A DNA stretch of 64,000 nucleotides from Obrimoposthia wandeli (lineage: Eukaryota): positions 186,001 through 250,000 of the forward strand of contig CDROCS010003853.1 in assembly GCA_977020255.1 (NCBI GenBank), written 5' to 3'. Of the stretch, positions 2,911-43,544 are shown one piece after another. The notes under the pieces are model-generated. The model saw only the letters and a list, made by a program, of their open reading frames with translations. It was not told the DNA's origin and did not search any database. Each line of letters starts with the position of its first letter. Positions within the stretch are counted from its first letter, which is position 1. The position numbers were made by a program, and so were the translations under genes.

Positions 2911-2953
2911 TAGCTCCATTACATATACTCTTTCATATTTAATATTGTTTATA

Positions 2954-3218
2954 TTACCATAGAAGTTTCCTTATTGAAATGTATAATTTCAGAGCTACAG
3001 CAGATGAAATACAAAATTTAATTAATGAATATTTGGCTATAATTTTATTTATTTGTGTTCGATTTCTAAATTTTCGAATGACATGTGATCTAAACAATAT
3101 TATCTCTTGTAGTATCATTATTTTTAATTCGGATAAAATTTGTTTACTCCTTATTTTTCCATAAAAAACTTTTATCAAAACGATCCACTTCATTGTCTGT
3201 ATTTATAGTATTATTCAT
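2954..3218 (-). pseudogene. Small Maverick-associated ORF with C-terminal hydrophobic segment (copy 1, frameshifted)
   Basis: Lies directly upstream of the ATPase on the same strand and ends ...KYSLIKFCISSAVALKLYISIRKLLW. Homologous to 9641-9916. Confidence 0.4.
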
Positions 3219-3343
3219 TTGAAACAACAGGTTTAGACGGGTTTGTTTATAAAAAGATAACAAATATAATAAAATATATTTTCTAAAATCGATTCAATAG
3301 TGTATCAATTATATATTTTAAAGTTAAAAACACGATTCTAAAA

Positions 3344-3880
3344 GGCATGTAATTAACAGGACACTTAATTTACTATTTTTGGCAATTAAATTTCTACTTT
3401 GGGCATTTAAATTACTACTTTGGGCATTTAAATTACTACTTTGAGCATTTAAATTACTACTTTGGGCATTTAAATTATATTTTGGGCATTTAAATTACTA
3501 CTTTGAGCATTTAAATTACTACTTTGGGCATTTAAATTACTATTTAGCAATTTAAATGCTAATTTAGAAATTTAAATGCCAATTTAGCAATTTAAATGCC
3601 CAAAAAGAAGTAATTTAAATGCCCAAAGTAGTAATTTTAATGCCCAAAGTAGCAAATTAAATGCCAAATAGTAGTAATTTAAATGCCAAAAGATACCAAT
3701 TTAAATGCCAAAAACTAGTAAATTAAATGCCGTTTTTTTAATGCCAAATAGTAGTAATTTAAATGCCAAAAGATACCAATTTAAATGCCAAAAACTAGTG
3801 AATTAAATGCCGTTTTTAAATGCCCAAAGTGGTAATTTAAATGCCAAAAGTAGTTTTTAAATGCCCCAAAAAATATAACC
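3344..3880. mobile_element. Non-autonomous foldback/MULE-like element (copy 1)
   Basis: GG...CC ends, 10-bp direct repeat GATTCTAAAA at 3334-3343 and 3881-3890. Arms are inverted arrays of a 21-bp unit CTTTGGGCATTTAAATTACTA. Confidence 0.8.
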
Positions 3881-4849
3881 GATTCTAAAATATTTCCAAT
3901 GCTTGTTTTCATCCTTTATTCAACTTGATTGAAATTTTACCCATTGATAAAATACTGCTCAACTGTTTTATTTCCAAAGTTTTTGGTGAGGAATAAAATT
4001 ATTTATCGTGTAATTAAACATTACGTGCATTATATTTTCTGTTTTATATTTTACTATGATAATCAAATGATTCCCTTCAGTATTTTGATTGCATAGGGAG
4101 TTCTCTATATGTTGGAGTAGAGTAACTGGTGAGCTATGCTTGTGCTATATTCTGTAAGTGTAATATATAGTTTATTTTAACACCTTTTAGGTGATGTATA
4201 TCTCATCAAAGCCAACAATCAGTATTATCATTGGTTTGAGCTCACAAACGCATTACCCTTACAAGAAGCCGATATAAATATTTATAGATACATCTCACTC
4301 GCTTTTACACAATACTCCACAATGATACTTAAAGAAGCAGCAAATGATTCGGCAGAGTACTGCACACATTGTCTTTAAAATTAAAAAATACTTAAAATAA
4401 CCAATTAAAATAGATTGATTGGTTGCCTGTTGGAGCAAGAATAAAAATATAAAATAATGACGATTTTATCGAAGTGTTTATTAAACCTATTAAATGCATA
4501 AATATATAGGCTAAATTTGCCTTAATATTTTATTTAATAATCACAATAGACAACCTTATGAATCTATGATTTTTTATACATGATTCGTGCTATACACCAT
4601 AATCGTTTAAACACTTATTGTGTAAATTTGTTTATAGATACATTAAACTTTGGTACATAACTAACCTAAAATGTGAAGAGCTGATATTATCTCGATGCAT
4701 TTTTCAACATCTCATATCCAAATTTATGTTACACCTCAAATATATGAAATATTCACCATATAAATATATTTTTACATACATTATACTGTTAATAATTAAA
4801 TAATAAATTAATAAATATGTCTCAAATTACCCTGATTGTCATGACGTGT

Positions 4850-5200
4850 TTCTCTTGTTGGTGTCACTGTGGGTTAGCTCTGTCATTTTAGCGAGGAAAG
4901 CAAACCCAATCTTTTCTGAAAGAGTTAGTCTTACGGACGTTCAAGAGATAGCTGATAGTTGAACCGGGTGTTTACATATCAGACATCAAGTCAATAGAGA
5001 ACAATCTGAGAGCACCACATTTTCTCTCTCAGATTCGTCCTGCAGTTTGTAACGTTGCATCCCAAATGCTCACACCACCAGTCGTTGTATTGTAGTGTTT
5101 GACAACGGCTGGCCGAAGAGTTCAATTTGACGTGAATGTTGGGATGTGTTTGTTACCAGTTCCATGCTATATACAGATGATGCTCCTCCAAGCCACGAAA
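4850..5200 (-). pseudogene. piggyBac-type transposase C-terminal remnant (copy 1)
   Basis: RPAVVKHYNTTTGGVSIWD (~5060-5120) resembles the piggyBac KP..V..YN...GGVD..D motif; highly degenerate. Confidence 0.55.
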
Positions 5201-5669
5201 TGAATATATTATTGATTGTCTGTTATACCTTTGTTGAATAGCACAATATTTTTGTAAACCACTAAATGTGTAACAAACAGCAACTACATAACTTGTAATT
5301 ATGTGTATTTATCTGGGGTGAAAACACTTATTCGTACAATGATCGTTGAAATGATCATGTGAATATATTGTATACCAAGTTTATACTAAACATTATATAA
5401 CTATGCTTAACTAATTTAAGCTATTACTTAACAAGTATACTAAAAAAATAATGATCAATAAAAATATTTACCTTTGCTGCTCACTGTCTCTTCGTGGTAT
5501 GTGTGGAAATTTGAATTTTAAAATGCAAGCTAATATTTTTGTTCAATATATATTAAAACAAACAATAATATTTTTTAATATTACATCTATGATAACTATG
5601 GTACTTTGAAACCGTTTAATAAAGTTCGTGACGTGGCGTGTAGACCTTTTTGAAAAGGCATTTTTGTTG

Positions 5670-5930
5670 ATAATGAGTTAAAGAAACCACCAGCATATCT
5701 TTGTGAACTAATGATACAATAAAAGATTCAAACTGTAATAAATTTGACAAATTACAAAACAAAAAGTAAATTAGAAATTAAATCTAAAAGGAAAAATATT
5801 TTCAACATTTGTTCAAAAGGTGTATAAGACACTTTCCAAAGAAAACCATGAAAGTCCAAAGTACCGAACTTTAATCGGCAAATTAAATCACACTTATTGA
5901 ACTTGTGTTACGAGCTGCTAATTAATTTAT
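5670..5930 (+). mobile_element. L2/CR1-like LINE 3' end remnant (copy 1)
   Basis: KKPPAYLCELM ... NFNRQIKSHLLN resemble C-terminal motifs of L2/CR1 ORF2; no RT core visible. Confidence 0.4.
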
Positions 5931-7889
5931 TAAGAAATAAAGTTAAAATATCTGGAGAAAAAATTTATATTTGTTTTAATAATCCTTCAATTACCCGTGT
6001 TATTACTGAGAAACCATTTTACTATAAATATGTAATAAAATGACAACGGGACTTGACTTTTTCACTACATACTAATAAAATAGGTTATTAAAATATCGAT
6101 ATTTTCCGCTCACACTTAGGGTATACCTCATCATTTTGATATCTAAGATCTTTAATATATATCTGGGATTTTGATGTCGATACTAATGATGATTTTGTTA
6201 ATCTATAATATAAATTATATGCAATAATATATGTTAATTTAGTTAGTGAAGTTAGTAAATAAATTATTTTATAAATTTTATAATAATAATATATATATAC
6301 AAGTTTTTTTTAAATTATGATTAATTAACATAAAACAAACAGTTATATAAATAATCATTTTACATAGCATTTATTTCATACAAATTAATAATTTTTTAAT
6401 GCAAATAATTAGAAAATATTTTTTAGTTTCTTAAATAATTTTTTATCGTAAATAAAATAAAATGTAACATTATGAATAATTATATTTATTATTCTTGTTA
6501 AATTGCTTACTTAATTTCATATAAATAAATTTTACTTATTCTTTTTGTAATTTGCATATATTTTATTTATAAATTGAAATGAAAAATATTAAATAGTAAT
6601 ATCACTGAATTAAAAGCATTTAGATAAAAAAAATTTAGAGTGTCAACATTTAATTCTGTTCATCATTTACAAATAATGAAATTTAAAAAAAAACGTCAGA
6701 AAAAAATTTAAACAAGGAGACATGTGTAAGAAGGTCCAGAAACAGCAGTCATGTGCTGCAGTGGCGAATGGGTGGAACTCCAGAGTGGAGATCCAAAACA
6801 TACGACAAGTGGAAAAAAGACTGATCCTACATCATTTATCGGATAAGGAAATATTATCCAAACAATTAATATCTGATATTCTACAACACTTTCTTGTTTT
6901 ATCTAATGAATATTTTTAATTTTTATGTCTAAATATTATTTTAAAAAGTCAGTTATAAAAAAGAGTTTCTTTAAAATGAAATATAAATTAATTGGAATAG
7001 AATGAAAATGAAATTGTGTCCAAATTTAATTGAAAAATGGGAAAGAAATTATTTATCGATTAAGGATAATTCAAAAATTGATGCAGATAAATTATACAAT
7101 TTACTTGCAAAATATTAAAGTAGGATTTTCATTAAATATTGGTTTATTGTACTGAGGAGATTTGAAAATAATTACTGACTTTAAAGTGAAAAAAATAAAT
7201 ACAGTAAAATATTTATTTGTTAATATTTTTAGAATTTTAAAAATTATTTGTTTCTTGATTTGGAAAAATTATAAACAAATATATTCAGACTTTATTTTTG
7301 TTAATTATGTACGAATATTTATTGACTGACACTTTTATTAATAAAGAGAAAGACTATATTATAAAATAATTATGTGTTGATGATGTCTGTAATCTTTTTA
7401 TCCTTTACACAATATATTCATGCGAATACTCCATTTAAATATTCAGATTCTAAAATTAAATTACTAATTGCTGTGTTCTAGAATATGTTCACCGATGTTT
7501 TTTATTTAATTTTATTGGGTTTTTACACGAAAAATATATATAATTAATTTATTGAAAACCAAATTGAAAACTGATCAATAAAAAGTTATTGAAAGTTATC
7601 TAACAAAACTCTCGCCAACAAATCTACCTCTCACCAATCATATCAATCAATCGTCGCCAACAAAACTACTAATATATCTACCTACCTTTTGTCACTCAAA
7701 CCAAATTTGGAATTGGGACTTCGAATGGCCAAATCTAAGCTAAAACAATATTGTATCTAACAATTTCCATTCCGATTAATGTCAAAACAAACAATCTCGT
7801 TGTTATTGAATTACAAATTGAAATCTAAAAATTAAAAAAATCAATCGCGTTGTTTTGTGACATTTTTAAGTTTATTCAAACTCGTGCGA

Positions 7890-8421
7890 GAGTAATTTTT
7901 AAAATCTCCTGGTGTATATGCTTTATTATATGAAGCTAGACATTTATATTTTAACTGTTGAGTTAACTGAGTCACTGAAATTTTTATCAAAGAATGGACC
8001 TTATATTATGCATTTCTTTAGTTTACTAGTCTTGCATGGTCAAGTTCAATTAAAAAAATTAATATGACTTTGTTATTTTCAAATAATACTTTCACTTCTT
8101 TATCTATACAATTGAAATATAATTTTCTTTTACTATCAAACCCAATCACAGCATTATTTTTTTCATAATATTTCATTTCTTTTGTAACCCGCCAGTTTTG
8201 TATGCTCTAGTTAAAAACCTTCTTCTTATCGGCTTGTTCAGACTGTAGAATAACTGATCGCTCAGCCATTTCTGCATTTTCTTGTAATTATGTCTTGTTC
8301 TTTTTGCAAAGTTTGGAACTCCTGTGCAGCTAATTGGATCTTTTGGATTGAACCAAATCTTCTCAATTACAACAATTTGAATATATAGAGATTTTAAATT
8401 TAGGTAAAGAAGGGTTAGCAC
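7890..8421 (-). pseudogene. Maverick integrase N-terminal remnant (copy 2)
   Basis: Identical translation to 1487-1735. Confidence 0.75.
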
Positions 8422-8475
8422 CCATATTTTCAGGTGATTTTTGAAATAATTGTTTATGTTCGTGTCGCAGCTATA

Positions 8476-8790
8476 ATACTACTGTTCATTGAAGCAGCAA
8501 CTGAAATATCAGCTCCTATGAAACCACCATTATGTTTAAGAATAATATTTCGTTTCCCTTTTATACTATTTACATTAGCAATACCTAGAAAGGTTTTTAT
8601 ATATATTTTTTAATACATTTCTCCGTTTTCCAATTTTTACTTGGCCCAAAACTATATTATACAAAACTTCCAATAAATCATCTACAACAAAAGATGGAAA
8701 TTCTTTAAAAATACTCATTCTCTTATGAGAAGAGGCTTTGACCAAAGCTTTTAAATAGGGTATGCTTCTCTAAATTTTTTTCATTTAAAA
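8476..8790 (-). pseudogene. Maverick core-like protein remnant (copy 2)
   Basis: Duplicate of 1790-2100. Confidence 0.6.
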
Positions 8791-8959
8791 AAATGTTCAA
8801 TTTGAACATTGTTTATATTCGAAGCCATTTAAGTTTTCTTTTATTTCTAACTACAGATTTGATTAATTTATTATCTTATTTTTTCTTAATGATTCTTTTT
8901 TTTATTTCTTAGGCTTTACTTTACGTTTCACTATCAACTTTTTAAAAGGCATTGCAAAT

Positions 8960-9597
8960 TTATTTTTTATAATTTTTCTCTATTTGTTTATAAACAGTTA
9001 CTCCCTTAGAATTAAATATGTATGTTAAAAAACGTAAATCATCTGGGCAAGCTTGTGTAAAGTCAATAAATATATACACATATGCTTGTTTAGCAGCATC
9101 ATGGAATGAATCAACTAGAAAGTTCTTATTTTGGGGAAATGCCTGTCTGGCCACGAAATCAACAACTGTTTGATCTCTAGGATTTTTAAAGAAAACTAAG
9201 TAATGTACTTTAACATTTCTTGTTCTATGATGACCTCCTTGATGAAAAATATTTTAAGTTATAAATATAACTGTTACTTCACGATGTCTTGCAATCTTTG
9301 TAAATAAATTATTAAAGTCCGAATCCTTGTTAGCTTCCTGATACAAATCATCAATTATTATTACATCTTCTTTTTTCAATCTTTCACACCAATTTGCATT
9401 AAATACATCAATAAATTTTATTCCCTTCAACTTGCAAACATCTGTTTGGGTTGTCCACTTTCCCCTCCACCACCATGATGCCAATAAATATTTTTGAAAA
9501 TAGATTGGAAAGGAAAATTATTTTGTAACAATTTACATGCGAAATGTGTTTTTACACTTCCACTGGAACCAACTGTTTGAAATATGGCATTATTATT
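8960..9597 (-). pseudogene. Maverick packaging ATPase, frameshifted (copy 2)
   Basis: Duplicate of 2273-2910 (ARHREVTVIFIT instead of ARHREITVIFIT). Confidence 0.9.
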
Positions 9598-9640
9598 TAG
9601 CTCCATTACATATACTCTTTCATATTTAATATTGTTTATA

Positions 9641-9916
9641 TTACCATAGAAGTTGTCTTATTGAAAAGTATAATACCAGAGCTACTGTAGATGAAATACA
9701 AAAATTAATTAATGAATATTTGACTATAATTTTATTTATTTGTGTTCGATTTCTAAATTTTCGAATAACATGTGATCTAAACAATATTTCAATATTATCT
9801 CTTGTTATATCATTATTTTTTAATTCTAATAAAATTTATTTACAATTATTTTATCCGGAAACAAATTCGTCGACAAAGCGATCCACTTCATTGTCTCTAT
9901 TTATAGTATTATTCAT
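9641..9916 (-). pseudogene. Small Maverick-associated TM ORF (copy 2, different variant)
   Basis: 92-codon frame MNNTINRDNEVDRFVDEF...CISSTVALVLYFSIRQLLW with two internal stops; clearly diverged from copy 1. Confidence 0.4.
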
Positions 9917-10042
9917 TTAAAACAACAGGTTTAGACGGGTTTGTTTATAAAAAAGATAACAAATATAATAAAATATATTTTCTAAAATCGATTCAATAGT
10001 GTATCAATTATATATTTTAAAGTTAAAAACACGATTCTAAAA

Positions 10043-10583
10043 GGCATGTAATTAACAGGACACTTAATTTACTATTTTTTGGCAATTAAATTTCTACTTT
10101 GGGCATTTAAATTACTACTTTGGGCATTTAAATTACTACTTTGAGCATTTAAATTACTACTTTGGGCATTTAAATTACTATTTTGGGCATTTAAATTACT
10201 ACTTTGAGCATTTAAATTACTACTTTGGGCATTTAAATTACTATTTAGCAATTTAAATGCTAATTTAGAAATTTAAATGCCAATTTAGCAATTTAAATGC
10301 CCAAAAAGAAGTAATTTAAATGCCCAAAGTAGTAATTTTAATGCCCAAAGTAGCAAATTAAATGCCAAATAGTAGTAATTTAAATGCCAAAAGATACCAA
10401 TTTAAATGCCAAAAACTAGTAAATTAAATGCCGTTTTTTTAATGCCAAATAGTAGTAATTTAAATGCCAAAAGATACCAATTTAAATGCCAAAAACTAGT
10501 AAATTAAATGCCGTTTTTTAAATGCCCAAAGTGGTAATTTAAATGCCAAAAGTAGTTTTTTAAATTCCCCAAAAAATATAACC
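10043..10583. mobile_element. Foldback/MULE-like element (copy 2)
   Basis: Same structure and GATTCTAAAA flanks (10033-10042, 10584-10593). Confidence 0.8.
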
Positions 10584-11549
10584 GATTCTAAAATATTTCC
10601 AATGCTTGTTTTCATCCTTTATTCAACTTGATTGAAATTTTACCCATTGATAAAATACTGCTCAACTGTTTTATTTCCAAAGTTTTTGGTGAGGAATAAA
10701 ATTATTTATCGTGTAATTAAACATTACGTGCATTATATTTTCTGTTTTATATTTTACTATGATAATCAAATGATTCCCTTCAGTATTTTGATTGCATAGG
10801 GAGTTCTCTATATGTTGGAGTAGAGTAACTGGTGAGCTATGCTTGTGCTATATTCTGTAAGTGTAATATATAGTTTATTTTAACACCTTTTAGGTGATGT
10901 ATATCTCATCAAAGCCAACAATCAGTATTATCATTGGTTTGAGCTCACAAACGCATTACCCTTACAAGAAGCCGATATAAATATTTATAGATACATCTCA
11001 CTCGCTTTTACACAATACTCCACAATGATACTTAAAGAAGCAGCAAATGATTCGGCAGAGTACTGCACACATTGTCTTTAAAATTAAAAAATACTTAAAA
11101 TAACCAATTAAAATAGATTGATTGGTTGCCTGTTGGAGCAAGAATAAAAATATAAAATAATGACGATTTTATCGAAGTGTTTATTAAACCTATTAAATGC
11201 ATAAATATATAGGCTAAATTTGCCTTAATATTTTATTTAATAATCACAATAGACAACCTTATGAATCTATGATTTTTTATACATGATTCGTGCTATACAC
11301 CATAATCGTTTAAACACTTATTGTGTAAATTTGTTTATAGATACATTAAACTTTGGTACATAACTAACCTAAAATGTGAAGAGCTGATATTATCTCGATG
11401 CATTTTTCAACATCTCATATCCAAATTTATGTTACACCTCAAATATATGAAATATTCACCATATAAATATATTTTTTACATACATTATACTGTTAATAAT
11501 TAAATAATAAATTAATAAATATGTCTCAAATTACCCTGATTGTCATGAC

Positions 11550-11900
11550 GTGTTTCTCTTGTTGGTGTCACTGTGGGTTAGCTCTGTCATTTTAGCGAGG
11601 AAAGCAAACCCAATCTTTTCTGAAAGAGTTAGTCTTACGGACGTTCAAGAGATAGCTGATAGTTGAACCGGGTGTTTACATATCAGACATCAAGTCAATA
11701 GAGAACAATCTGAGAGCACCACATTTTCTCTCTCAGATTCGTCCTGCAGTTTGTAACGTTGCATCCCAAATGCTCACACCACCAGTCGTTGTATTGTAGT
11801 GTTTGACAACGGCTGGCCGAAAGTTCAATTTGACGTGAATGTTGGGATGTGTTTGTTACCAGTTCCATGCTATATACAGATGATGCTCCTCCAAGCCACG
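11550..11900 (-). pseudogene. piggyBac transposase remnant (copy 2)
   Basis: Duplicate of 4850-5200. Confidence 0.5.
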
Positions 11901-12371
11901 AAATGAATATATTATTGATTGTCTGTTATACCTTTGTTGAATAGCACAATATTTTTGTAAACCACTAAATGTGTAACAAACAGCAACTACATAACTTGTA
12001 ATTATGTGTATTTATCTGGGGTGAAAACACTTATTCGTACAATGATCGTTGAAATGATCATGTGAATATATTGTATACCAAGTTTATACTAAACATTATA
12101 TAACTATGCTTAACTAATTTAAGCTATTACTTAACAAGTATACTAAAAAAATAATGATCAATAAAAATATTTACCTTTGCTGCTCACTGTCTCTTCGTGG
12201 TATGTGTGGAAATTTGAATTTTTAAAATGCAAGCTAATATTTTTGTTCAATATATATTAAAAACAAACAATAATATTTTTTAATATTACATCTATGATAA
12301 CTATGGTACTTTGAAACCGTTTAATAAAGTTCGTGACGTGGCGTGTAGACCTTTTTGAAAAGGCATTTTTG

Positions 12372-12635
12372 TTGATAATGAGTTAAAGAAACCACCAGCA
12401 TATCTTTGTGAACTAATGATACAATAAAAGATTCAAACTGTAATAAATTTGACAAATTACAAAACAAAAAGTAAATTAGAAATTAAATCTAAAAGGAAAA
12501 ATATTTTCAACATTTGTTCAAAAGGTGTATAAGACACTTTCCAAAGAAAACCATGAAAGTCCAAAGTACCGAACTTTAATCGGCAAATTAAATCACACTT
12601 ATTGAACTTGTGTTACGAGCTGCTAATTAATTTAT
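12372..12635 (+). mobile_element. L2/CR1-like LINE 3' remnant (copy 2)
   Basis: Duplicate of 5670-5930. Confidence 0.4.
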
Positions 12636-13577
12636 TAAGAAATAAAGTTAAAATATCTGGTGAAAAAATTTATATTTGTTTTAATAATCCTTCAATTACC
12701 CGTGTTATTACTGAGAAACCATTTTACTATAAATATGTAATAAAATGACAACGGGACTTGACTTTTTCACTACATACTAATAAAATAGGTTATTAAAATA
12801 TCGATATTTTCCGCTCACACTTAGGGTATACCTCATCCTTTTGATATCTAAGATCTTTAATATATATCAAAATAACATATACTCACCAGGTTTCAGCTTC
12901 ATATAACTTAAGAGACATTTTCCAATAAATCAATAATCAAAATATTATTGACCACTGTATTCCCTTATGTGATTTGAAACCGAAAATATTATTGACCATT
13001 GTATACCCTATGTGATTTGAAACCGAAATTTATTTTCACAAATTTTATCATATATGTACATCAGGTACATCAGGATGTCAATGTTTTTAATTTTTTTACA
13101 AACATAATTTCGTCACTTGTATTTTTAGAAATAGAATTTAAAATTATGAATGGTGATGTATTTGTTTTAATACATTCGACCAGTTGCGTTAGAGTATTTA
13201 AAAAGTTCAATTATATTAAAAAATATTCCATTTTAATATTCCAATACATAATCTTGCATTAAATATCAATATCTCAATTCAATTAAAGTTATGAACATAA
13301 ATTGAATAAATACAATTGTACATCAATATAACACTCCTACCTCGAAAACCTCCAAATAACCTTAATCGCAGAATTAATTGCTTATACAATGGATATTCAT
13401 CAGGTGTGACAAGGTGTTGCAGATCATTAAGTTAATATTTCATTTGAATTGTTACTTTATGTAAATATAACTTATTTGATGTTAAAATCAACGTTATCAA
13501 AGAATAGAAGATAATGTATAAGTATAAAACTAAAATAAAATATATTAATAAATATATAAAATATAAAATACAGTTAC

Positions 13578-24546: not shown

Positions 24547-24977
24547 TGACGATTCTGGAAGTAATTCCCGGCTCTACACGCCCACACGCGTGCAACCGGG
24601 AATTATTTAGGGATTCCCCGGACAATCCGATCTGGGCTCATCTGCGTAGATCTTTGTTGGGGTACGAAACTCACCACAAAAATCCGCCAAGACCACAGAT
24701 CGAAGTGACCCATTAGGGGCTACTCGATCTGTGATCGAAACTTCCCCACATAAATATTATTATTATTATCTCTGGCTTCTCGTGATCTACCGCGAAGTCA
24801 GAGATAATGTGCCGTCCGCCTGATGAGCCCGACATGGAGAAACCGGTTAAGCCGGTCGGGGACTGTTAACTAATCTTATCAGGATTGAAAAATGCCAAAG
24901 TATATTCTAAAATCATTCAATTTCCCTAATTAAGGAAATTTCCCCTGGTTAATTTCCAATTAACGAAATAATTAACA
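24547..24977 (-). mobile_element. LTR-like segment related to the LTRs of the 12.5 kb element; boundaries uncertain
   Basis: 24770-24970 aligns with 29405-29560 and 41070-41280. A possible CTTT 4-bp flank occurs at 24543-24546 and 24978-24981 (could be chance). Confidence 0.6.
24814..24863 (+). ncRNA. Type I hammerhead ribozyme (stem II eroded)
   Basis: GTCCGC CTGATGA GCCC GACA TGGA GAAA CCGG TTAAG CCGG TC GGGGAC; core intact, GUC site at 24855-24857. Confidence 0.75.
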
Positions 24978-28000: not shown

Positions 28001-28840
28001 CAGGGTCTTCCTGTTTTACATACTTATCGTATTTTTGTAATAAAATTACTGCTGCATCTCTGTGCTCTGACATGTTACCTGAAATTTCGACTAATTCGGT
28101 TATAACTGATTTAAGTTATTAGGCTCTACTGTTTAAATACTCATTATTTTCATCATTTTCTAAAATATTTTTGCTTTATTTATGATTAATTCATCTGTGG
28201 TAATTCGTTCGCTATTTTCACCATCTTCTGATTTATTTATTAATTCATAATATCTAATCGGATTTGTGTTTATGGTTTGTTCCATAGGTAACTCTTATAG
28301 CTCAATAATTTTATTCATCGTATCATTAAATTCTTTAGGGGTTATATTTCTTTTTGGTTTAGAAATTACGGCTGTACTCGAAGTCTTATTTTTTGGTTGT
28401 TTCTCTAGTATTTCCAACATTCTTACATATTTATTATTCATATCCTCCTGGTCGATATCTTTACGTAATTTATCCTCTTTAGGGTTTTCCTCATATTTGG
28501 GTACGTAATTTCAGTTTATGTTAGGTCTTGGTGGACTTTAACGGTTACTACTTTTCTCTTCTCTTCGATTATCGTCAAATCTATTTGAAAACTTATCATT
28601 ATTTATGTTATTTCGTTGCCAGTACGATGGTGAAATTGATCCGTAATTATTTCTATCCTTCGGTTTCCATTATTATTATAAAATTATTTCTGTCTGTTTT
28701 GTCTCTTCTTGGACCACGACAGTTTCTTGCTATATGGCCAATTTTATCGAAATTATGATATTACGCGTCACTGATATTCAAATTTTACTCTCTAATTGTC
28801 GTTAAATGGGGTACGGTAATCAAATCCGCTAGGTGAATTA
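25053..28840 (-). mobile_element. Older Ty3/Gypsy element D, 3' part (gag knuckle, glycoprotein remnant, two proteases, RT C-term/RNase H, integrase Zn finger), heavily deleted
   Basis: Knuckle remnant KIGHIARNC (~28720-28760); DTG motifs at ~27150 and ~26765; TNASN*ALGAVLGQ RNase H (~25900); HYHDGKLGGHLS integrase Zn finger (25053-25364). Confidence 0.85.
27500..27910 (-). pseudogene. C-terminal remnant of chuvirus-like glycoprotein in element D
   Basis: NNLGCTGLYTPEEL...MFPVRRARVLTEMVDRVMP...*GKFLVLGQMFSEIIGIY...ILLSQILSTYGLYRITGVTWKLI aligns with 35067-35480. Confidence 0.85.
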
Positions 28841-29614
28841 TGATAAGTTACAAATAAATAACTAAATTGTATTTGTCGATAATTGAATAATTCTCAACAA
28901 ATACCAGATCAATTTTTCTGGTCAAAATGATACACTCTTTGTCCTGTATAATTCTTGTGTTGTTATTTTCATAGGCATCTCTGTATATATACAAACAAAC
29001 ACAGACAGACACAAACACACAAAAATCAATTTTCATCCGGACAGTTGGAGGGCGATTTGCAGAAACTGTGGCCATAGAGACACAGACCGAGAGAGATATT
29101 TTGCCGCAGCTGGAGAGACTGCACACGCTGTCATGCTATGGAGTTGTCCCAGCTGCTAGAGGCACCCGAAGGCAAGAGAGAAGACCCGACACGGCGACAG
29201 AATCGGTAGGAGAGAATATTGATGATGACAATGATGATGTCGCCGTCGATGATGATGACGACGTCACTGTCGCTGGAATCCACTGTGGACTGATGCATGA
29301 CATCAAATAGATCCGGCCAACATCAGGATAGTGGAGGGCGGCGCTGCACAACCTGCAGACTTAGTGCAAGTAAGTGCCCTTTGTTTATTTTCTCCTTTTT
29401 TATTTCTGACTTTGCGGGCATTTTGCCCACCGCGAAGCCAGAGATAAATCTGCCGCCCCCCTGACGAGCCCGGCAGGGCGAAACCGGTTAAGCCGATCGG
29501 GGACTGAACTAATAAAACTGATTACAAAATGCCAAAGTGTATTTCACTTACCCGAATTAAGAAATAATTTTAATTTTTTAATTTTATTATTTTTTTTTAA
29601 TTATAATCCTAACA
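28841..29614 (-). repeat. 3' LTR of element A (774 bp)
   Basis: Aligns with 40420-41325; preceded on minus by a purine-rich tract AGCCGGAGGA. Confidence 0.92.
29455..29504 (+). ncRNA. Type I hammerhead ribozyme in the 3' LTR (antisense to the element)
   Basis: GCCCCC CTGACGA GCCC GGCA GGGC GAAA CCGG TTAAG CCGA TC GGGGAC; intact core, predicted cut after C29498, one stem III mismatch. Confidence 0.85.
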
Positions 29615-29912
29615 ATCCTCCGGCTAATAAATGTTCTGGCCTCAGAATTCAAATCTCCAGCAAAACACAAATAAAAATCAATTTTTTCCAATTAAATTAC
29701 TTAAAAAATGATAAAACTTTTAAACATTGAAAATGTTCTTGATAAAATAGTAATACTTATTAATGAAACAATAATAATACCTTTGATTATACGTTGTCTA
29801 AAATAAAACATTCATCGGAGTCGGAGTCGGAGTCTGTTATCTCACTTGGGATACTCAACAAATCGTTTAGACAAAATTCCTCCACCAGTCTATCTCTACG
29901 TTTTTCAAAAAC

Positions 29913-30404
29913 TCACTTAATGTTCTTGGTATCCTCTAAACATGTGTGAATCTTCTTCTGTGTTTCTTCTCCAAAATATTTTGATATCATTGTCTTTAAT
30001 CCTATTTTAGGATGGTTATGGCCAAGTTCTGTTCTTATTTCAGTTGATGCACCCAGGTCCATGATTCTAGCAAAATGGTGTTTTTCTAGTCTTAATACTT
30101 TCAAATCATTTTCTAATCCTGCACCTATCAAAATATTTCCTACTAATATTGATTGTGCATTTTCAATGACTTCCTCTGCATCAGTCTTTCCTGTCAAAGA
30201 TTTTTTGGTGAAACCAGTTATAAATTTAACATAATTTCGTATTCTTTCTCTTGGCGTTACTATTTCATGTAATACAATCTGATCTTTTTCATCTATGATT
30301 GTAATGCTAGCCAATGTTTGTTTTTTGTCTACCGTGATGGCCATTTCACAGTCCATGAAATATTTAATTGGAATTTTTGATATATTTGTATTTTCTAAAA
30401 GCAT
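29913..30404 (-). CDS. DEDDh 3'-5' exonuclease, ISG20/REX4 family-like, carried by element A (163 aa)
   Basis: ExoI YFMDCEM, ExoII ILIGAGLENDL, ExoIII IHTCLED; all catalytic positions appear present. Confidence 0.88.
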   Translation of the reverse strand: MLLENTNISKIPIKYFMDCEMAITVDKKQTLASITIIDEKDQIVLHEIVTPRERIRNYVKFITGFTKKSLTGKTDAEEVIENAQSILVGNILIGAGLENDLKVLRLEKHHFARIMDLGASTEIRTELGHNHPKIGLKTMISKYFGEETQKKIHTCLEDTKNIK

Positions 30405-30587
30405 TATTTTATTCGTTTTCCAGATTAACTATATAAAAAATGTATTTCTCCTGGGACTAAATTTTAGGAGATATTCGTTTCTTAACTCTTTTTTATCAAT
30501 GGTATAAGAATGATTTTGTAAAAACATGTGACTTAATTTCTTTTCTTGTTTACTCATTAAATGAGCTCTTCCTTCTGCTCCATGAAT

Positions 30588-30953
30588 TTATATTTCTTCT
30601 ACGTCTAGTAAATCTCCTACTAATTCTGATAAATTTATTCTTACATTGTTGGTGTGGTGCATAGTAAAAATTACACTTTTTCTGCTAGTCTTTGTAATTT
30701 TTAGTTTATTAGGAATATGCGTTTGGTCTTGGAATACCTGTTTTCCTTCTCCATTTTTAAAATATCTATTGCTATACTGTCTTATTCTTCTATATAGGAA
30801 TTTCGCTAAAATGTTCATTGTTGGAGTGCATAATGGTTCTTCCTCTAAACTATTAGTAAGGTCTACGACTGATGGTGAAAAATCGTCCAAACAACTTTCC
30901 CCTACAACTCGGATCCACTTCCGTTTGTTTGTTGAGTACTCCATCTGTAACAT
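30588..30953 (-). CDS. ORF-X, unknown accessory protein of element A (may extend past the stop)
   Basis: Homologous to 55625-55870 (QTHIPNKLKITK..INLSELVGD vs QNYFPNKLKITT..IAISEFLPD). Confidence 0.55.
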   Translation of the reverse strand: MLQMEYSTNKRKWIRVVGESCLDDFSPSVVDLTNSLEEEPLCTPTMNILAKFLYRRIRQYSNRYFKNGEGKQVFQDQTHIPNKLKITKTSRKSVIFTMHHTNNVRINLSELVGDLLDVEEI

Positions 30954-31549
30954 AATTCAGTCGGAGTAAAATATAGAACAATGAAAAATAAAGAATAAAG
31001 AAACATTTTCATGCAACTGTAGAATATGTAGTCATAATTTTGTACAACAGATATATTATATAATAATCAAGTTATCATACTGGCCAAATTAGCCCAATTC
31101 GGATTAATTTCCAGAATCATGTCCATAAATAAAGTTTCGATTCCTGTTGGGAAAAATAAGTCTGATCATTAAGTGTTGGGTCTGTGACTGCAGAGCTAAA
31201 GTTACTCTCCGTTGAGAACTGATTCTATGATAAAGATCATCAATTTTATGTGAATCAGATTTGATTATCTGTTCAAGCTCATTCATTTATGTCTGTTGCA
31301 TTTACTTTGTGTAAATTTTTATTTGTTATATAATATATTATAAATAATATCATTATTTTTATGATTTCTTTTATCGATATTTTTATTGTATTTTTATCTG
31401 ATGATTTTTATTAATATTATTTTGTTTCTGTGAGTTTTTTATTGTTAACATTTGTAAAACAATATTATCGTTAGTTGATCTCAGATTATATCTATGAATT
31501 TTTACTTTTGTATTTTCCTCAGGTACTTGACGACATCTATTTATATGTG

Positions 31550-34500
31550 CTCTTATTTCTTTTGATTTAGGGTCATTTTCAAGTTAAGCGGTTATGTTAG
31601 TTCCGTTGGTACTAATGACTGTATATGGTTTTGATAGTTTGTGTGACAGACCTACGCTGATTTGTGGATTGTGAATCATCACTTTACTTCCATTTTTATG
31701 TTTGATGGTTTAGTTCTTCTATCATAGTATTCTTTGTAGTTTTCTTTTATGTTTTTTACAAATAATTTTTTCAAAAGCTAATTTTATTCTCTCTCTATTT
31801 TCTATTTTGTATTCTGGTATTTCTAAGTATTGAGTGGTAGGTTGTAATAATGTTAGATCAATAGGCATTTGTGGATCTCTGAGGAACATAAGGTAAAAAG
31901 GTGTTTCTCCTGTTGATGCATGTACTGATGTTCTATATGCAAAAAGGCATGGAGGTATGTGTAAATCCAAATCTGTTTGATTGTTGTTAATGTATGATGC
32001 CATCATATCTTCGAGGGTTCTATAAAATCGTTCTAATAATCCATCGGTTTGAGGGTGATATGGAGTTGTGTTAATCTTTTTCATATGAAATATTTCAGCT
32101 TTAGATGCTAACACATTATTTATGAATTCAGGACCTTTGTCAGTTAAAAACTTTCGGGGTGCACCGAAAGTAAAAATTATTTTTTCGACTAAAACCTTCG
32201 CGATGGTTTCAGCCTTGTGATCTTGTGTTGGGAAAGCCTTTGGCCATCTTGTAAAATAGTCGGAGAATACTATTATGTAGCGATTTCCTCGGGGTATTTC
32301 AGGTAATGGTCTCATTTCATCCATGGCAACGATTTCCATGGGGGCTGATGGATAAGGTATTGGCTTTAAAGTAACTTTAGTGGTACGTAACGTGTTTTTT
32401 CGTTTAAGGCATATTTCGCATGTTTTGCACCAATTTTTTACATTTTCTTTCATGTCGATTTAATAATATTTTAGGTTTAACCTTGAAAATGTCTTTTTTG
32501 ATGATAAATGTCCACCTAGTGCTCCATTATGATATTGAAGGAGTAGTTGACATTGTATGTCTTTCGGGATTACTAATGAGTATAAATTTTTATCATTTAA
32601 ATAATATAATATTTCATTACTATATTTATATCGTGATTCGTGACTTTTTAAGTGTTTCCTTAATTTTTCATCTGTTGGAATTTCGTTTATGCTAATGTAT
32701 TTAGCTATTTGTTGAATTTCAGTATCTTTACTTTGAAGTTCTGTAATTACTTTTTCGTCGTATCTAGCTTTTATTATTGTAAAAAGGTTGGATGCTGAAT
32801 TGTCAGTATTTAACATATTTATATCATCTCTAATTCTAGACAAGCAATCTACATTTGCATTCGATTTTTTTTTCTATATTTTATTTCTATGTCATATGTT
32901 TGAAGAATTAATGCCCATCTCATTAATCTAGATGTAGTGTCTTTGTGATTGAAAAGCCATTGTAATGGTCTTTGATCTGTATATACATAAATTTTCCGAC
33001 CAACTAAGTAATGTTTAAAATGTTCCATAGCAAAACAAATAGCTAAACATTCTCTTTCAATTGTTGAGTAGTTTTTTTCATGTTTTTTAAGACCTCTGCT
33101 TGCGTATGCTATTACATGATCTTTCTCGTTATTATCTTGTTGTCCTAACACCGCTCCTAGTGCGTATCCACTTGCGTCTGTCATTACTATAAATGAGTTT
33201 TTGAAATCTGGATATCTGAGTATAGGTTTTTCAATTAGTTTTTGCTTTAAATATTCGTACGATTCTTGTTGTTCTGTTTCCCATTCAAATTTTTCGTCTT
33301 TTTATAATTATTTTATTTAATGGTGTTGCTATTTGAGCTAAATTTTTTATAAATCTACTATAGTAGCCAACTAATCCTAAAGATTCTTGAATATTTTTAA
33401 CAGTTTTTGGAATTGGAAAATTCTTAATCTTTTCCATATTACTTTCGTCTGGTTGTATTCATTTTGCAGACACCGCATGTCCTAAATAATTTACTTTTTC
33501 TTTTATCCATTCACACTTTTTTGGTTTTAATTTTAAACCCGCTAATTTCAATCGTAGAAAAACATTTTCTAAATCTTTAAGATGTTCTTCAAAATTTTTA
33601 GAGAAAATTATTATATCATCAATGTAAACCATTACATGATCAGCGTCCATTAAAATGTGACTCATACATCTTTGAAATGTTGCTGGAACTCCTGTTAGTC
33701 CAAAAGGCAATACATTAAATTCATACAAACCTTCTCCTGTTGAGAAAGCGGTTTTATTTTTTTATCATTTTCTTCAATTTCGATATGCCAATAACCACTT
33801 TGTAGATCGAGAGTTATGAATATTTTGGCGTTTTTTTGTTTGTCTAAAATCTCGTCTATTCTGGGAAGTGGATATGTATCTTTTTGTGTATTCTCATTTA
33901 ATTTTCTATAGTCTACACAGAATCTCAAGGAGCCATCTTTCTTTTTACTTAAACTACGGGTGATGTCCATGGTGAAAAACTTCTTATTATTATGTTATTC
34001 TCTAACATTCCTTTGATTTGTCTTTGGGCTTCATCTCGATAAGCGTATGGTATACGGTAAGGTCTTCGTTTAATTGTTGTATTAGTAGTTAGCGGAAGAT
34101 TATGTTTTATTAGATCAGTACGTCCTAAATCATATTCAGTTTTTGCAAAAATAATATCATATTTTTCTTTTAAGGTTTTTAGTCGTGATTTTTCATAGTC
34201 TATTAATTGTATTTTGTCAAAATTAATTGTTGATGTATCACTTATTGTTTCATTATCAATAAAACTAATAATTTCGATTACACTTATTTTTCCTAGGCGT
34301 ATCCCTGTATTAAGATGAATTTGATTTGTATCTCCATTTAATATTTGGATAGGTATTGTATTATTTTTAATTTTACATATTATGTTGGGTTGTTCTTTGT
34401 TTCTTCTTAATGTTTATATGGCTCAAATAATATGTCTTTGTCTGATACTAAATTTGTTTCTAAGTGTAATATTGTTACCGTTCGTGGTTGTAATATAATA

Positions 34501-34960
34501 TATCCTTTAATTTATATTTCATATTCGCTTTTAGCATTGGCTTTGCGAATATTTTTAATTTGGTTTTGTTCGAAGTCAAAATGTAAATTATTTCCTAATT
34601 TCCTTAATGTATCTATGCTAATAATCATTTGACATGGACAACCTTTCATAATTCTGGTAGGGATTTTTATCGATTTATCACCTATTTTAAATATACAATC
34701 CAATTAGCCTATTATATTTACTGGTTGTCCATTTGCTGCCATAACTTGGCTATTTTCGCTTAACAATGATGATTTTTGATACTCACTTAGAAATGATTCA
34801 TCTAAAACGGTAACGCTTGACCCTGTATCTATTAAAGCTTTTAAACTATAATTATTTATTTCAACTTTTACATATGGTCTTTTGTCATTGTCTAGTTGAT
34901 TTATTGTATAAATTGTCGGTGCAGTCGGCTCTGGGATGACCACTTCATTTTTGTACATTT
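31550..34960 (-). pseudogene. pol of element A: protease (34500-34958), RT (33200-34100), RNase H (32849-33200), integrase (31550-32600)
   Basis: ALIDTGSS; [21 protein letters not shown]; TDASGYALGAVL; HNGALGGH...CKTCEIC, DYFTRW, TDKGPEF, TPYHPQTDGLLER. Confidence 0.95.
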
Positions 34961-35066
34961 TAAAATCGGGATATTTCGGGGATTCTGTATTTTCTGTAAT
35001 TTCGTTGATAGTTAATTTTTGTGATTTTGTTTCTCACATTTCGTTTGATAATGCGTTTACTGTATT

Positions 35067-36960
35067 TTAATGATGATTAAATATAAGAAATTTAGCCAAA
35101 AATGGAAAACATCCCAAAATTAGTTTCCATGTTAATCCACCAACTTTATAAATATAATATGTAGAAAGTATTTGACTTAATAAGATTTTGAAACATATTA
35201 TAAGTGCATAAATACCAACTAATCCTGAAAAACCTTGGCCAAATATTAGAAATTTTCCCCATATTTTTGTCATTGTGTTTTTTGTAGCTTTTACAAAATG
35301 GTTGGGTGACAATAGCAAGTCATAATCTGGACGACTAAATCCATCAGGTACTGATCTTTCGATGATTTGAGTCAAAACTCTTGATCTTATTTGTGGAAAT
35401 AATATTTATTTTCTGAGTTTATCAATATCTTCTTGTATGTATATACCGTTTGTATTTAATTCGTTGTCCGGTTCTATTTCTAAGTTATTTTCAAGGACTG
35501 TTAATTGAAGTTGTTTTGGTTGTGTAACTATGTATCTTCTTGGAAGTGTAATCCATGTATCTTTAGTGATTTGATAAAGTGGTGCCATTAAGTTTGAACA
35601 ATTCATTTCTTTGATACTATAAATATTAAAACGTATTATTCGTGTGATAGGCTCTACAAATAATGAGTAATTTTTATAAGTTATTGGTAATTCTTTTGTA
35701 CATTTGTCATGATGTCTTATTTTTACTATTACTTTTTTGCATTTATATGTGTATAGAACTTCACCCATTACTCTACCGAAAATACCGTCTGACAAAGGTA
35801 ACAAAGGTGTTATCAACTCCGGATTAGTAGCAATAATTGCTAATTTAGTTTTTAAGATTTCTTGATTTAATTTGCAATCGTTGTTAATTGTTTCTCTGTA
35901 TAATGCTTCTATTGTCATTAAGCCTTTATGATAAAAATAATCTATTTTATTGTTAAAATAATCGTAATTTTTAATGTCAAATTTTGTAGGTGTGTATTTT
36001 GCATTTTGTATTTTTTCCTTACTAAGATATATGCCTTTATAGTTTGTTGTATAAATCATGTGTCCACAACGTGTTTCTTCTTTCTTTTTTATAAATCTCA
36101 TTCCTGAGCCTTGATCTGTAGACATTAAAATAGTCGGGGTATTTGCCTTTTGTTGCTTTCGTGTTCTGTATGTTTTAAATATATCTTTTGGTATTTGTTG
36201 ATTAAATTCTGGATCGTCTTTAAATCTTCTACCTTGAATTATTTGAAAATTTTCAGTTTTAAGATGTATTAACTTACATTGTTCTAAATGTACTTTATAG
36301 TATATAATTGAGGAACCTGTGTTACAGTATCTCATGTTGGCTTCACAAAATGGCATTTTCATCATTGTTTTTGTGGATGGGTCAAAAATTGCTTTAAAGA
36401 TTCTAAGTTCTACCTCAAAGTTTTTTATCACAACTAAACCTTTTTGTTTGATTCCCATGACTACATATGTACCTGTCGTACAAGTAACGTCTGATTTTAT
36501 TGAACCAACTACAGTTATCATTTGTTGAAGGATTTTACCTTTAACTGCTCGAACTTTAATTTCTCTATCAATGCGTAATTCACCAGTTGTGAATGCATCT
36601 TTGCAATTTAAAGCATCGACTATTAGTAGTGTTTTTCCGAGTGTGGGTCTCACTATTGAGCTGTGACTATCTGCTCTGCAATGTGTTATAAATGTTTCTA
36701 CGTGTACTCTACACTCGAACAATTCAGCACTTATAAAATCAGTCTCTTGGTAGACGTGGAGTAACTCAGTTCTTTTAATTTTTACCTCGTTTGGGTCTGC
36801 GTCTGCACATTGCTGTAAATCCATCAGTGAGTTCTGTTTTGTATTTTATAAGATGTGCAATCATATGCTTCTATAGCATTTATGGGTTTTATTATATTTA
36901 CTATCAACGTTATATTACTATTAGTTGTATAATTTTATAAATATTTTTTAAATATTCTTT
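35067..36960 (-). pseudogene. env-like class III fusion glycoprotein (chuvirus/gB-type) between gag and pol
   Basis: N-terminal AYDC (~36870, frameshifted), Cys-rich ectodomain (CRVHVETFITHCRADSHSSIV; GEVLYTYKC; CTKELPITY; NGIYIQEDIDKLR), stop at 35406, then a C-terminal TM region WGKFLIFGQGFSGLVGIY. Confidence 0.82.
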
Positions 36961-37199: not shown

Positions 37200-38690
37200 A
37201 TTCCTTCTAATTTTTGTTTTAATAGTGCAATATCTCCGTTTTCATATGTTTATTCGTTATTTTCTAATATATGTACTGGATTTTTATAATTTGTTTGAGG
37301 GTTGTATTGTCTGAATTGTGTTGTATTTCGTGTTTGGGGTTGTTGAGGTATGGTTGTACTTTGAAATTGATTTATTAATGTTTTTAGTTTGTTACAATCA
37401 TCTGTAGTATGGTTATGCATGTTGCAAATTTTACAGAAATTTTTGGGTTTTTGAAAAAAAATATTTTGATTATTATATCTGTAATTGTTGGGTCTACTAT
37501 TGCTATTTTGTCTATATTGTAACTTTCAACATGTTTCTAAAGTGTGATTTTCTTTTTTACAGAATTTACAAAATTTGTTATTATTGATCTTACGACAATT
37601 TTCTATTGTGTGATTTTGTAATCCACAATTTGTACACTGTCTATTATGGGTTTGTGGGTTTGTGTCTATATAAATTATTGATTTCTATATAAATTATTTG
37701 ATGTAAATCTCGATGGTTGATTATTTTGGAAATTACTCATTGGGTTTTGATTTGTATTTTGCATATTGTTAAAATTTTGAGTTATTTGAGGTCTTTCTAT
37801 TTTTTCGAAAGACAATGCCGATACTTCTGATGGGTGCAATATATTTAACCGAGTCTCTACTAACTGTGCCTTGGTAATGGCTTGTTGAAAATTTTCTACC
37901 TCTAACAAAGCAGGATGATTTTTAATTTTGTTATTTAATCCGTATAAAAACTTATGTAGTAATAATCTATCTCGCTGAGCTTCAGCAATTTCGGGAAAAG
38001 ATCTTAAGGCTAATCGTTTTAACTCTACGGCAAAAATATTTGTAGGCTCTCCTAATAACTGTTCTCGTTGTCTAAATTGATTTAAATAATTTTGCTCGGA
38101 TTGTGTTCCTATATCATACCCTGAAAATGTTGTACTAAATGTTCCCAGGTGTCTCTATGTTGTTCCGTCAATCCTCTATAAATAGTTAAGACAGTGCCTT
38201 TAAGGTATACCGGAAAAATCCTAAGTTTCTCCGCGTTAGTCCACTCAAATGCCTGAGCAAATGAGTCGAACCTATTCAAAAATTCGGGTAAAGAAGATTT
38301 ATCGCCATTGAAAGCGTCTAATGGGACATTTAATTTATGTGCAGCCATTATTTGAAGTTGGTCGTCTATTTCTATGTTATCTATTTCGTTTAACTGAGGT
38401 TCAGGTGTAACTATTGGTGTTATGCTTTCTGTTTCTTCTATTTCAGTTTTAAAGATATCTGTTAGACTTTCTGAGTCTGATGAAAATGTCTGGTTTGTGT
38501 GTTGAGAGTATGATGGAGTTTCTGGGAAAAATTCGTTTTTTGTTCTTAAACTTGTTTGAGACTTGGGTCTTTGTGGTGGGGATTCTGTTGATTCTGTTCT
38601 TACCAGTCGGGTCTGTTTGGATTTATGAATTTTTATTTATTCAATGTTAATCACCCCTATATTTTTTTATGTGTTTCCGTTTATGTTGTA
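37200..38690 (-). pseudogene. gag of element A with three CCHC zinc knuckles
   Basis: FNGDKSSLPEFLNRF..WTNAEKL; knuckles CTNCGLQNHTIENC, CKFCKKENHTLETC, CKICNMHNHTTDDC (37390-37640). Confidence 0.9.
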
Positions 38691-40399: not shown

Positions 40400-40417
40400 A
40401 TCACGTCAGGCTCTCCA
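40400..40417 (-). promoter_or_regulatory. Primer-binding site of element A, tRNA-Trp-like
   Basis: TGGAGAGCCTGACGTGAT, 15/18 match to canonical Trp PBS TGGTGACCCCGACGTGAT, 2 nt after the LTR end. Confidence 0.8.
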
Positions 40418-40419
40418 AA

Positions 40420-41325
40420 TAATAAGTTACAAATAAATAACCAAATTGTATTTTTTCGATAATTGAACAATCCCCAACAAATACCAGATCAATTCTTCTG
40501 GTCAAAATGATAAGTTACAAATAAATAACCAAATTGTATTTGTCGATAATTGAATAACTCTCAACAAATATCAGATCAATCCCTCTGCTCAAAACGATAC
40601 ACTCTTTTTCCTATATAATTCTTGTGTTGTTATTTTCATAGGCATTTCTGTATATATACAAACAAACACAGACAGACACAAACACACAAAAATCAATTTT
40701 CATCCGGACAGTTGGAGGGCGATTTGCAGAAACTGTGACCATAAAGACACAGATCGAGAGAGATATTTTGCCGCAGCTGGAGAGACTGCACACGCTGTCA
40801 TGCTATGGAGTTGTCCCAGCTGCTAGAGGCACCTGAAGGCAAGAGAGAAGACCCGACACGGCGACAGAATCGGTAGGAGAGAATATTGATGATGAAAATG
40901 ATGATGTCGCATTCGATGATGATGACGACGTCACTGTCGCTGGAATCCACTGTGGACTGATGCATGACATCAAATAGATCCGGCCAACATCAGGATAGTG
41001 GAGGGCGGCGCTGCACAACCTGCAGACTTAATGCAAGTAAGTGCCCTTTGTATATATTTTTCTTTTTATCTCTGACTTCGCGGGCATTTTGCCCACCGCG
41101 AAGCCAGAGATAAATCTGCCGTACCCCTGACAAGCCTGGCAGGGCGAAACCGGTTAAGCCGGTCGGGAACTGAACTAATAAAACAGATTACAAAATGCCA
41201 AAGTGCATTTCACTTACCTGAAATAATATTTCCCTACTTAAGGAAATTTTCTCCCGTTATTTCTTAATTAAGAAATAATTTAAATTTATTTATTTATTTT
41301 TTTTTTTTTAATTATAATCCTAACA
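40420..41325 (-). repeat. 5' LTR of element A (906 bp; includes an ~88-bp tandem duplication at the U5 end)
   Basis: Aligns with 28841-29614; 40420-40507 is repeated at 40508-40595. Confidence 0.92.
41121..41170 (+). ncRNA. Type I hammerhead ribozyme in the 5' LTR (G8A core mutation, likely inactive)
   Basis: GTACCC CTGACAA GCCT GGCA GGGC GAAA CCGG TTAAG CCGG TC GGGAAC. Confidence 0.8.
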
Positions 41326-41329
41326 ATTA

Positions 41330-42966: not shown

Positions 42967-43544
42967 TGTAATTGTCTGCTGGAAGTCTGCAGTTTTATAG
43001 GAAGAAGATGGTGCGAGATACCGCACTTTCTGGTAGAGGAGGTCCGGGATATGTAGGGAGACCGAACAGACCCCAATATACACAGAGAACATCGACCACC
43101 ACAAGCATAATACTCCATAGGGAATTAGACTGATGGTAGAGGATAAGAGAGAAAAAGAGATTTGAGAGTCGGACATGTCAAGGGAGGTAGAAGAAGATTG
43201 ATGCGTCTTGGGAGTGGAATCCAGACAGTTTGATCTGATAATGTCTGTCGGGGATTCACGGAAGACGGGGAAACAGTAAGCTGACCAATAGTTATACTGG
43301 CTGTTGTCAGGAATCATTGCAGGGGAAGAGTGTGATACCAGTGTGCTGGAGAGAAGGAGTTCCTGGGTGGTAGACCATTTCCACGAAATTGAAGATAATC
43401 ATCCGTGCCGTCTCCCTGAAGAGTTTGGCAGGACGAAACGGGACATTTTTCCGTCGGAGACTAACCAATTCACCTCCCTTATTGAGGGTATTTCAGTTTA
43501 ATTATTTTAATTAATTATCAGTTATTTAATTCTATATCCCAACA
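42967..43544 (-). mobile_element. LTR-like segment of a third subfamily (TGTTGGGATATAG... on minus); left boundary uncertain
   Basis: Terminus resembles the element A LTR, and it carries the same hammerhead at a similar distance from the edge. No clear PBS or TSD found. Confidence 0.55.
43410..43461 (+). ncRNA. Type I hammerhead ribozyme, apparently intact
   Basis: GTCTCC CTGAAGA GTTT GGCA GGAC GAAA CGGGA CATTT TTCCG TC GGAGAC; perfect 6-bp stem I, GUC site, predicted cut after C43455. Confidence 0.9.

Follow-up and report, generated by a model that had tools for sequence, protein, structure and literature searches.

Antisense hammerhead ribozymes in the LTRs of an env-bearing Ty3/gypsy retrotransposon family: a possible counter-measure against antisense transcripts

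In the literature cited here, the known ribozymes of retroelements process the RNA of the element itself. In its passages on retrotransposons, a review lists only R2, L1Tc, SINEs, Penelope and the retrozymes (PMC6765202). The plant LTR retrozymes (PMC4918200, Cervera et al. 2016) carry a hammerhead in both LTRs and have a Ty3/gypsy-type primer binding site (PBS), a polypurine tract and a 4-bp target-site duplication. They are 1-1.5 kb long and non-coding, and their ribozymes, mostly of type III, delimit the transposition RNA. A type I hammerhead in the terminal repeat of an animal retroelement is known from Penelope-like elements, Terminons and animal non-LTR retrozymes (PMC6765202, PMC6431247). 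None of these has an integrase, a PBS or true LTRs, and they process their own RNA. DEDD exonucleases are a further feature of Terminons (10.64898/2026.07.22.740005). Finally, the flatworm GAG-ENV-POL errantiviruses and Burro/GYPSM1 have a gB-type env between gag and pol (PMC13524379, PMC6431247); in the text of the former paper (eLife) on these elements the words 'ribozyme' and 'exonuclease' occur 0 times. The retrotransposon of Obrimoposthia wandeli described here, element A, shares traits with each of these systems: LTR hammerheads together with PBS, polypurine tract and target-site duplication, the type I layout in a terminal repeat, the DEDD exonuclease and the position of env.

Element A and its hammerheads

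The window is the whole stretch of 64,000 nucleotides that was analysed (assembly GCA_977020255.1, contig CDROCS010003853.1, positions 186,001 to 250,000 of the forward strand). At its beginning (1-13400) a segment of about 6.7 kb, with minisatellites of 21-22 bp, is present as two near-identical tandem copies, either a recent duplication or an assembly artefact. A proteasome gene in the neighbourhood of the element has its best named hits in flatworms; a planarian host is likely. Element A is a Ty3/gypsy element on the minus strand with the ORF order gag, fusion glycoprotein, protease, RT, RNase H, integrase and exonuclease-like, and all of its ORFs are broken. The LTRs (28841-29614 and 40420-41325) are 95% identical over 721 nt and have the ends TG...CA, one end being altered. 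These LTRs, the PBS, the polypurine tract and the target-site duplication assign the element to Ty3/gypsy, and the order PR-RT-RH-INT with a gB-type env between gag and pol assigns it to the GAG-ENV-POL elements. By eye, the env resembles the Smed_errantivirus_1 row of PMC13524379. The features of the element and of neighbouring LTRs are:

24810..24863, plus strand: hammerhead with a damaged stem II, from a related LTR (outer edge 25072) that sits inside the integrase of another gypsy relic
28837..28840, no strand: target-site duplication, 4 bp; second copy at 41326-41329
28841..29614, minus strand: 3' LTR of element A; a segment of about 40 nt that most sister LTRs have is missing
29370..29375, plus strand: antisense-strand site resembling a splice donor; 9/29 subfamily representatives have the full motif, hence not general
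29400..29448, plus strand: long hairpin directly 5' of the focal hammerhead; some LTR subfamilies only
29451..29504, plus strand: hammerhead of type I that runs antisense to element A and has two helix mismatches; cleavage site after 29498
29615..29630, minus strand: short polypurine-tract region, common to the 3' LTRs of the family
29913..30956, minus strand: accessory ORF, broken, with a DEDD-type 3'-5' exonuclease at its C-terminus; a sister copy matches RNase_T
31722..35033, minus strand: pol in pieces (protease, RT, RNase H, integrase)
35067..36845, minus strand: env-like class III fusion glycoprotein, PF24664, broken; between gag and pol
37250..38636, minus strand: fragmented gag-like ORF without a Pfam match; assigned from its position and by inspection
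40400..40417, minus strand: primer binding site, 16/18 to the 3' end of the same genome's tRNA-Trp
40420..41325, minus strand: 5' LTR of element A, whose 3' end has a tandem duplication of 87 bp
41117..41170, plus strand: hammerhead copy of the 5' LTR; one invariant core position altered
43406..43461, plus strand: hammerhead with compensatory stem changes in a solo LTR that is more distantly related (outer edge 43544)

The match of the PBS to tRNA-Trp fixes the minus strand of element A independently of the ORFs. Together with the ORFs and the position of the motif it confirms what the initial annotation had stated, namely that the hammerhead lies on the plus and the element on the minus strand. 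Elsewhere (G000:C5734:143176-151119, L254) a unit of 207 bp is repeated in tandem more than 30 times; the four complete ones that were scanned are tRNA-Trp genes. The exonuclease of the accessory ORF is presumably REX4/ISG20-like. A DEDD exonuclease was seen in the hammerhead clade and in none of the giant relatives that were fetched. That the LTR end with the hammerhead is the U3 is inferred from its position and from TATA-like boxes far downstream, which are present in 6 of the 8 LTRs examined.

The focal hammerhead is made up of stem I (29455-29460/29499-29504), a core which starts at 29461, stem II (29468-29479) and stem III (29483-29497); a GCC 5' of stem I is able to pair with loop II. 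Conserved core, three helices and an open stem I are found in the focal as well as in the family copies and define the type I layout. In folding, the three-way junction is the minimum-energy structure of the 61-nt plus strand and the minus strand forms no junction; the z-score of the piece (0.21) is unremarkable. The hammerhead has no Rfam match at the gathering score. Since three microbial look-alikes of the LTR hammerhead were also without a match, the Rfam library misses this shape. The outer LTR edge is 153 nt from the start of the focal core and 116 nt from the cut; in the family the distance from core to outer edge is 99-240 nt with a median of 133 (72/76 copies placed). Besides the focal one the window holds three more copies, at 24820, 41127 and 43416, all on the plus strand. 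In one LTR subfamily splice-donor-like sites on both strands (29370-29383, 29534-29553) form an inverted repeat which encloses the hairpin and the hammerhead.

The focal copy itself is damaged. Its first stem III pair beside the core is mismatched, a pair which is broken in 3/76 copies (the focal variant also occurs in 2/30 close copies), and there is a second mismatch in stem I. In a context of 150 nt the probabilities of its junction pairs are near zero, compared with medians of 0.20-0.96 for 75 copies, as calculated by a program that ignores pseudoknots. The focal copy thus probably cuts poorly, and the proposal in the initial annotation that any plus-strand transcript is cut at 29498 is not supported for it. 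As the LTRs are 5% apart, damage to the hammerheads of element A is expected from neutral decay. A ribozyme function would be a property of the family and not of the focal insertion, and the copy in the window is a decayed example.

Occurrence and conservation in the family

A tight hammerhead motif has 1,598 exact matches in the 1.35 Gb genome (804+794), which is a lower bound on the number of copies, against 0+0 for a reversed-pattern control. Nine same-strand pairs, 12.8-15.7 kb apart, were fetched, eight from these matches and one obtained separately. Eight of the nine enclose gag-env-pol-exonuclease and in all eight coding elements both hammerheads are antisense; the ninth has no family ORFs inside. 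Among the first 30 pattern matches the LTR edge is 100-260 nt downstream in 24 and upstream in 0.

We also sampled the family independently of the ribozyme. Three exonuclease searches, of which we took the best 30 of 150 listed each, gave 90 loci, three of them the queries' own. As the exonuclease served for sampling, the hammerhead was not used to select the LTRs. An antisense hammerhead match with up to 4 substitutions is present in 77/90 of these LTRs, all of them at the 3' end of the element. The single loose sense match is not a hammerhead (this check covered the first 60 exonuclease loci, including its own), and no sense hammerhead was seen. The 13 LTRs without a match are accounted for by ten that are truncated or interrupted, either at the site or short of it, and by three antisense copies with indel damage. 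The antisense orientation seen in the initial annotation is thus that of the family, in both LTRs.

The 77 matched copies comprise 76 distinct ones, which fall into 29 subfamilies defined by the LTR body alone, and one representative of each was compared. Between subfamilies the 12 core positions are 0.977 identical, a value somewhat inflated because the three indel-damaged copies stand outside the count and the match step favours core-like sequence. The free core position (0.57) and loop III (0.53) are far less conserved, and the stems take values of 0.72-0.87. The initial annotation had asked in advance whether the core is better conserved than the neighbouring LTR sequence. This is the case, as the 50-nt flanks are only 0.62 and 0.69 identical and the shuffled flank 0.58. 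The core is intact in 68/76 copies, core plus stems in 64/76. The LTR bodies are mostly unalignable even between elements whose RT/RNase H are about 90% identical, and the ribozyme end persists. As a side observation, the 62 clusters of LTR bodies (L081-L098, window 28841-29400) divide into 48 groups that have no 150-nt stretch in common, some copies being truncated, and exonuclease type and LTR type assort independently.

For covariation, 46 copies were aligned (45/62 cluster representatives plus one copy from the window), after removal of near-duplicates, of the tandem array and of one truncated copy. In this alignment 92% of the cells pair, compared with 32-47% in slid controls, and there are 77 two-sided changes against 29 in shuffles, although the hammerheads are related and the changes are not independent events. 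The stem changes include G-U pairs suited to the hammerhead strand. The putative pseudoknot between the GCC at stem I and loop II is complementary in 92% of the cells with only 2 two-sided changes, and the same arrangement can be seen in microbial hammerheads that are unrelated. Fast hammerhead cleavage depends on pseudoknots of this general type (PMC3088659). In equilibrium folding the pair probabilities of typical copies are modest, with medians of 0.20 for stem I and 0.41 for stem II (n=75). On these sequence comparisons, we conclude that the LTR hammerhead is real, abundant and under selection; the evidence for the family comes from one genome and from related sequences.

A giant gag-env-pol relative with an RT about 68% identical is abundant, and the one LTR pair of it that was examined has no hammerhead. 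The 20 stretches that were retrieved for nine distant elements showed no match to the exonuclease. In L183/L184 two hammerhead-bearing LTR pieces lie on either side of a distant pol; their match covers only 184 nt, and they were not counted as an element. Pattern scans of metagenome (21 stretches, 19 listed) and viral (4) sequences gave only loci without a match to the element proteins, most of them microbial-looking. Some metagenome and phage contigs (L221-L243) carry hammerheads with the same stem II and loop, and three that were tested were undetected by Rfam. Inside one LTR (L064:1922-2962) a 156-bp unit with a degenerate LTR hammerhead module is repeated in 6.7 copies. Retrozyme-like arrays may arise from hammerhead LTRs as well as from Penelope elements.

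What the ribozyme may cut

A hammerhead acts only as RNA. The conserved strand therefore implies an antisense transcript, which itself we infer. Orientation alone proves nothing because a sense ribozyme at this place would cut the element's own RNA. We suggest that the conserved antisense hammerhead in both LTRs is a counter-defence which severs antisense transcripts of the element and so breaks piRNA traps, and we give this reading a probability of about one half. A copy might be read backwards by a host gene, by a piRNA cluster or by divergent transcription of the LTR itself. The antisense transcript would be cut on entry through the 3' LTR and again on exit through the 5' LTR. This would leave an antisense body of 12-14 kb without a cap and without a poly(A) tail, whose cyclic-phosphate 3' end would be open to 3'-5' decay. 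Such a severed body would be poorly processed and exported and hence a poor piRNA precursor, and the genomic RNA, which holds only the complement of the ribozyme, would stay uncut. The initial annotation had seen the hammerhead of the 3' LTR as a block. Its antisense position in this LTR stands, but both LTRs carry a hammerhead, and with one ribozyme per LTR the device would excise rather than merely block. More tentatively, and with somewhat less confidence than in severing as such, the family could be pictured as enveloped LTR retrotransposons armed with paired antisense ribozymes which excise the element from any host or piRNA-cluster transcript, an escape from the trap at the level of RNA only that would be paired with the element-coded exonuclease.

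The antisense threat invoked by the initial annotation does exist in planarians: of 270 piRNA clusters 268 run in one direction only (PMC6824462), and antisense LTR sequence is strongly over-represented in one class of clusters (10.64898/2026.01.28.702291). A single insertion is enough in Drosophila: lying antisense in a host transcript, it can set off piRNA immunity, for which cytoplasmic transcripts are the trigger (PMC13226689). In the genome studied here, a stretch of 47 kb (window 24800-64000 plus L256; contig 210-257 kb) holds about seven separate Ty3/gypsy insertions, all on the minus strand, with a proteasome gene on the plus strand among them. This run was noticed post hoc and is expected by chance in about 1 in 60 cases. 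The stretch may represent one transcription unit of the plus strand or else a small piRNA cluster. A one-strand piRNA cluster over the whole contig was discarded, since the orientation is mixed outside the 47 kb. Four contig sets (one sample, kind unstated) gave no usable information on strand, start or splicing over 28700-29560, and their very high depth over the hammerhead module is a measure neither of copy number nor of expression.

Other roles have to be weighed against the same observations. The ribozyme might mature an antisense RNA made by the LTR, either by setting the 3' end of a short RNA or by feeding a self-limiting small-RNA loop. The conservation fits any catalytic role, and upstream on the same strand lies a GC-rich body of 300-500 nt with a GC box (18/29), the donor (9/29) and, in some families, the hairpin. 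However, this body is non-homologous between most subfamilies and has no shared ORF, and donor, hairpin and a downstream AATAAA (6/29) are not general; we regard such a maturation as unlikely. A little harder to accept is an explanation unrelated to cutting, in which the sequence persists as a regulatory DNA element of the U3, as a structure of the sense RNA or as a recently spread passenger that is tolerated only in antisense. LTR ends do exchange between subfamilies, so that the module could sweep, and the folding probabilities of stems I and II are modest even in typical copies. Yet near-invariance is limited to the catalytic positions. The free core position and loop III have fallen to background levels, and the stems change in compensating pairs, among them G-U pairs that suit the hammerhead strand.

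The two equal sites that flank the element body could also release a unit-length antisense RNA which is circularised for replication or persistence. Plant retrozymes make circles in this way (PMC4918200), and one LTR has the array of 6.7 modules of 156 bp. Such a unit would, however, be 12-14 kb long and non-coding in antisense polarity. Moreover, the opposite strand carries a normal PBS and polypurine tract, and replication primed by the tRNA does not depend on an RNA of this sort. In our view an RNA circle of this kind is quite improbable. Hardly credible is a start of cap-independent translation of an antisense ORF by cleavage, which has been reported for type I hammerheads of fungal RNA viruses (PMC13725137). 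Here the first ATG after the cut opens a median of 13 codons and at most 30 (76 copies), no antisense ORF behind the cut is conserved in these copies, and those antisense ORFs that are longer vary between subfamilies and shadow the exonuclease. An antisense gene in the LTR or behind the cut was likewise dismissed, as there is no shared ORF on either side.

Several points speak against the severing of antisense transcripts as a counter-defence. The initial annotation had assumed that the cut comes before the exonuclease/pol region is copied. In human cells transcription passes on and the 5'-OH product is not degraded (PMC6938672); for the same reason we discarded the cut as a transcription terminator. 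With transcription continuing past the cut the antisense body would still be made, and by analogy with the stable product in human cells a single cut would leave antisense RNA. The planarian clusters with antisense LTR sequence are weakly polyadenylated anyway (10.64898/2026.01.28.702291), and by this analogy the loss of the tail may not matter. The new RNA end could feed piRNA processing instead. RNA ends with 5'-OH and cyclic phosphate can also be ligated into stable circles. An escape from trans-silencing would be shared by all members of the family, and selection for it is weaker than for an advantage confined to one copy. Finally, the related giant gag-env-pol family is abundant without a hammerhead, as far as its one examined LTR pair tells. 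A polyadenylation signal or a splice donor as a part of the device was rejected, as neither is general among the 29 subfamily representatives.

If the severing of antisense transcripts is nevertheless true, it would be a transposon counter-measure against the very step that starts immunity. Many natural copies with intact and with dead hammerheads coexist, so that planarian small-RNA and RNA-end data could test this reading.

Relation to known systems

The antisense orientation is surprising and we did not find it in print, although a prior mention may exist. Titles and opening abstracts in the mostly open-access literature searched gave no LTR hammerhead of an autonomous LTR retrotransposon and none in antisense. 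In PMC7229834 and PMC4209133 planarian or antisense words occur in 0 places.

A Penelope origin of the hammerhead was checked at 46 GIY-YIG loci. None has a convincing hammerhead, and as many of these loci look non-Penelope this says little about such an origin. Several of them (L287-L302) have ORFs of about 600 aa and by size and layout are like bacterial repair genes, which suggests bacterial contigs in the assembly. The family has neither the tandem short units nor the adjacent Penelope ORF of a Penelope pseudo-LTR or non-LTR retrozyme, one internal array being seen. With the hammerheads placed in LTRs, an abundant class of 'orphan' flatworm hammerheads is reassigned.

In summary, the family differs from each of the related systems. 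The giant gag-env-pol relative in the same genome is, in the LTR examined, without the hammerhead that marks this family. Compared with Penelope-like elements, the element here is primed by a tRNA and bears an integrase, and its ribozyme is antisense. Since the LTR hammerhead cannot touch the genomic RNA, its target would be antisense RNA and its function would go beyond those catalogued. Nor are the hammerhead pairs LTR retrozymes, as the interior is coding in 8/9 pairs and the ribozyme lies on the strand opposite to the transposition RNA. In contrast to the plant LTR retrozymes, the family described here codes for gag, env, pol and an exonuclease, is 12-14 kb long, and carries a type I hammerhead which faces away from the transposition RNA.
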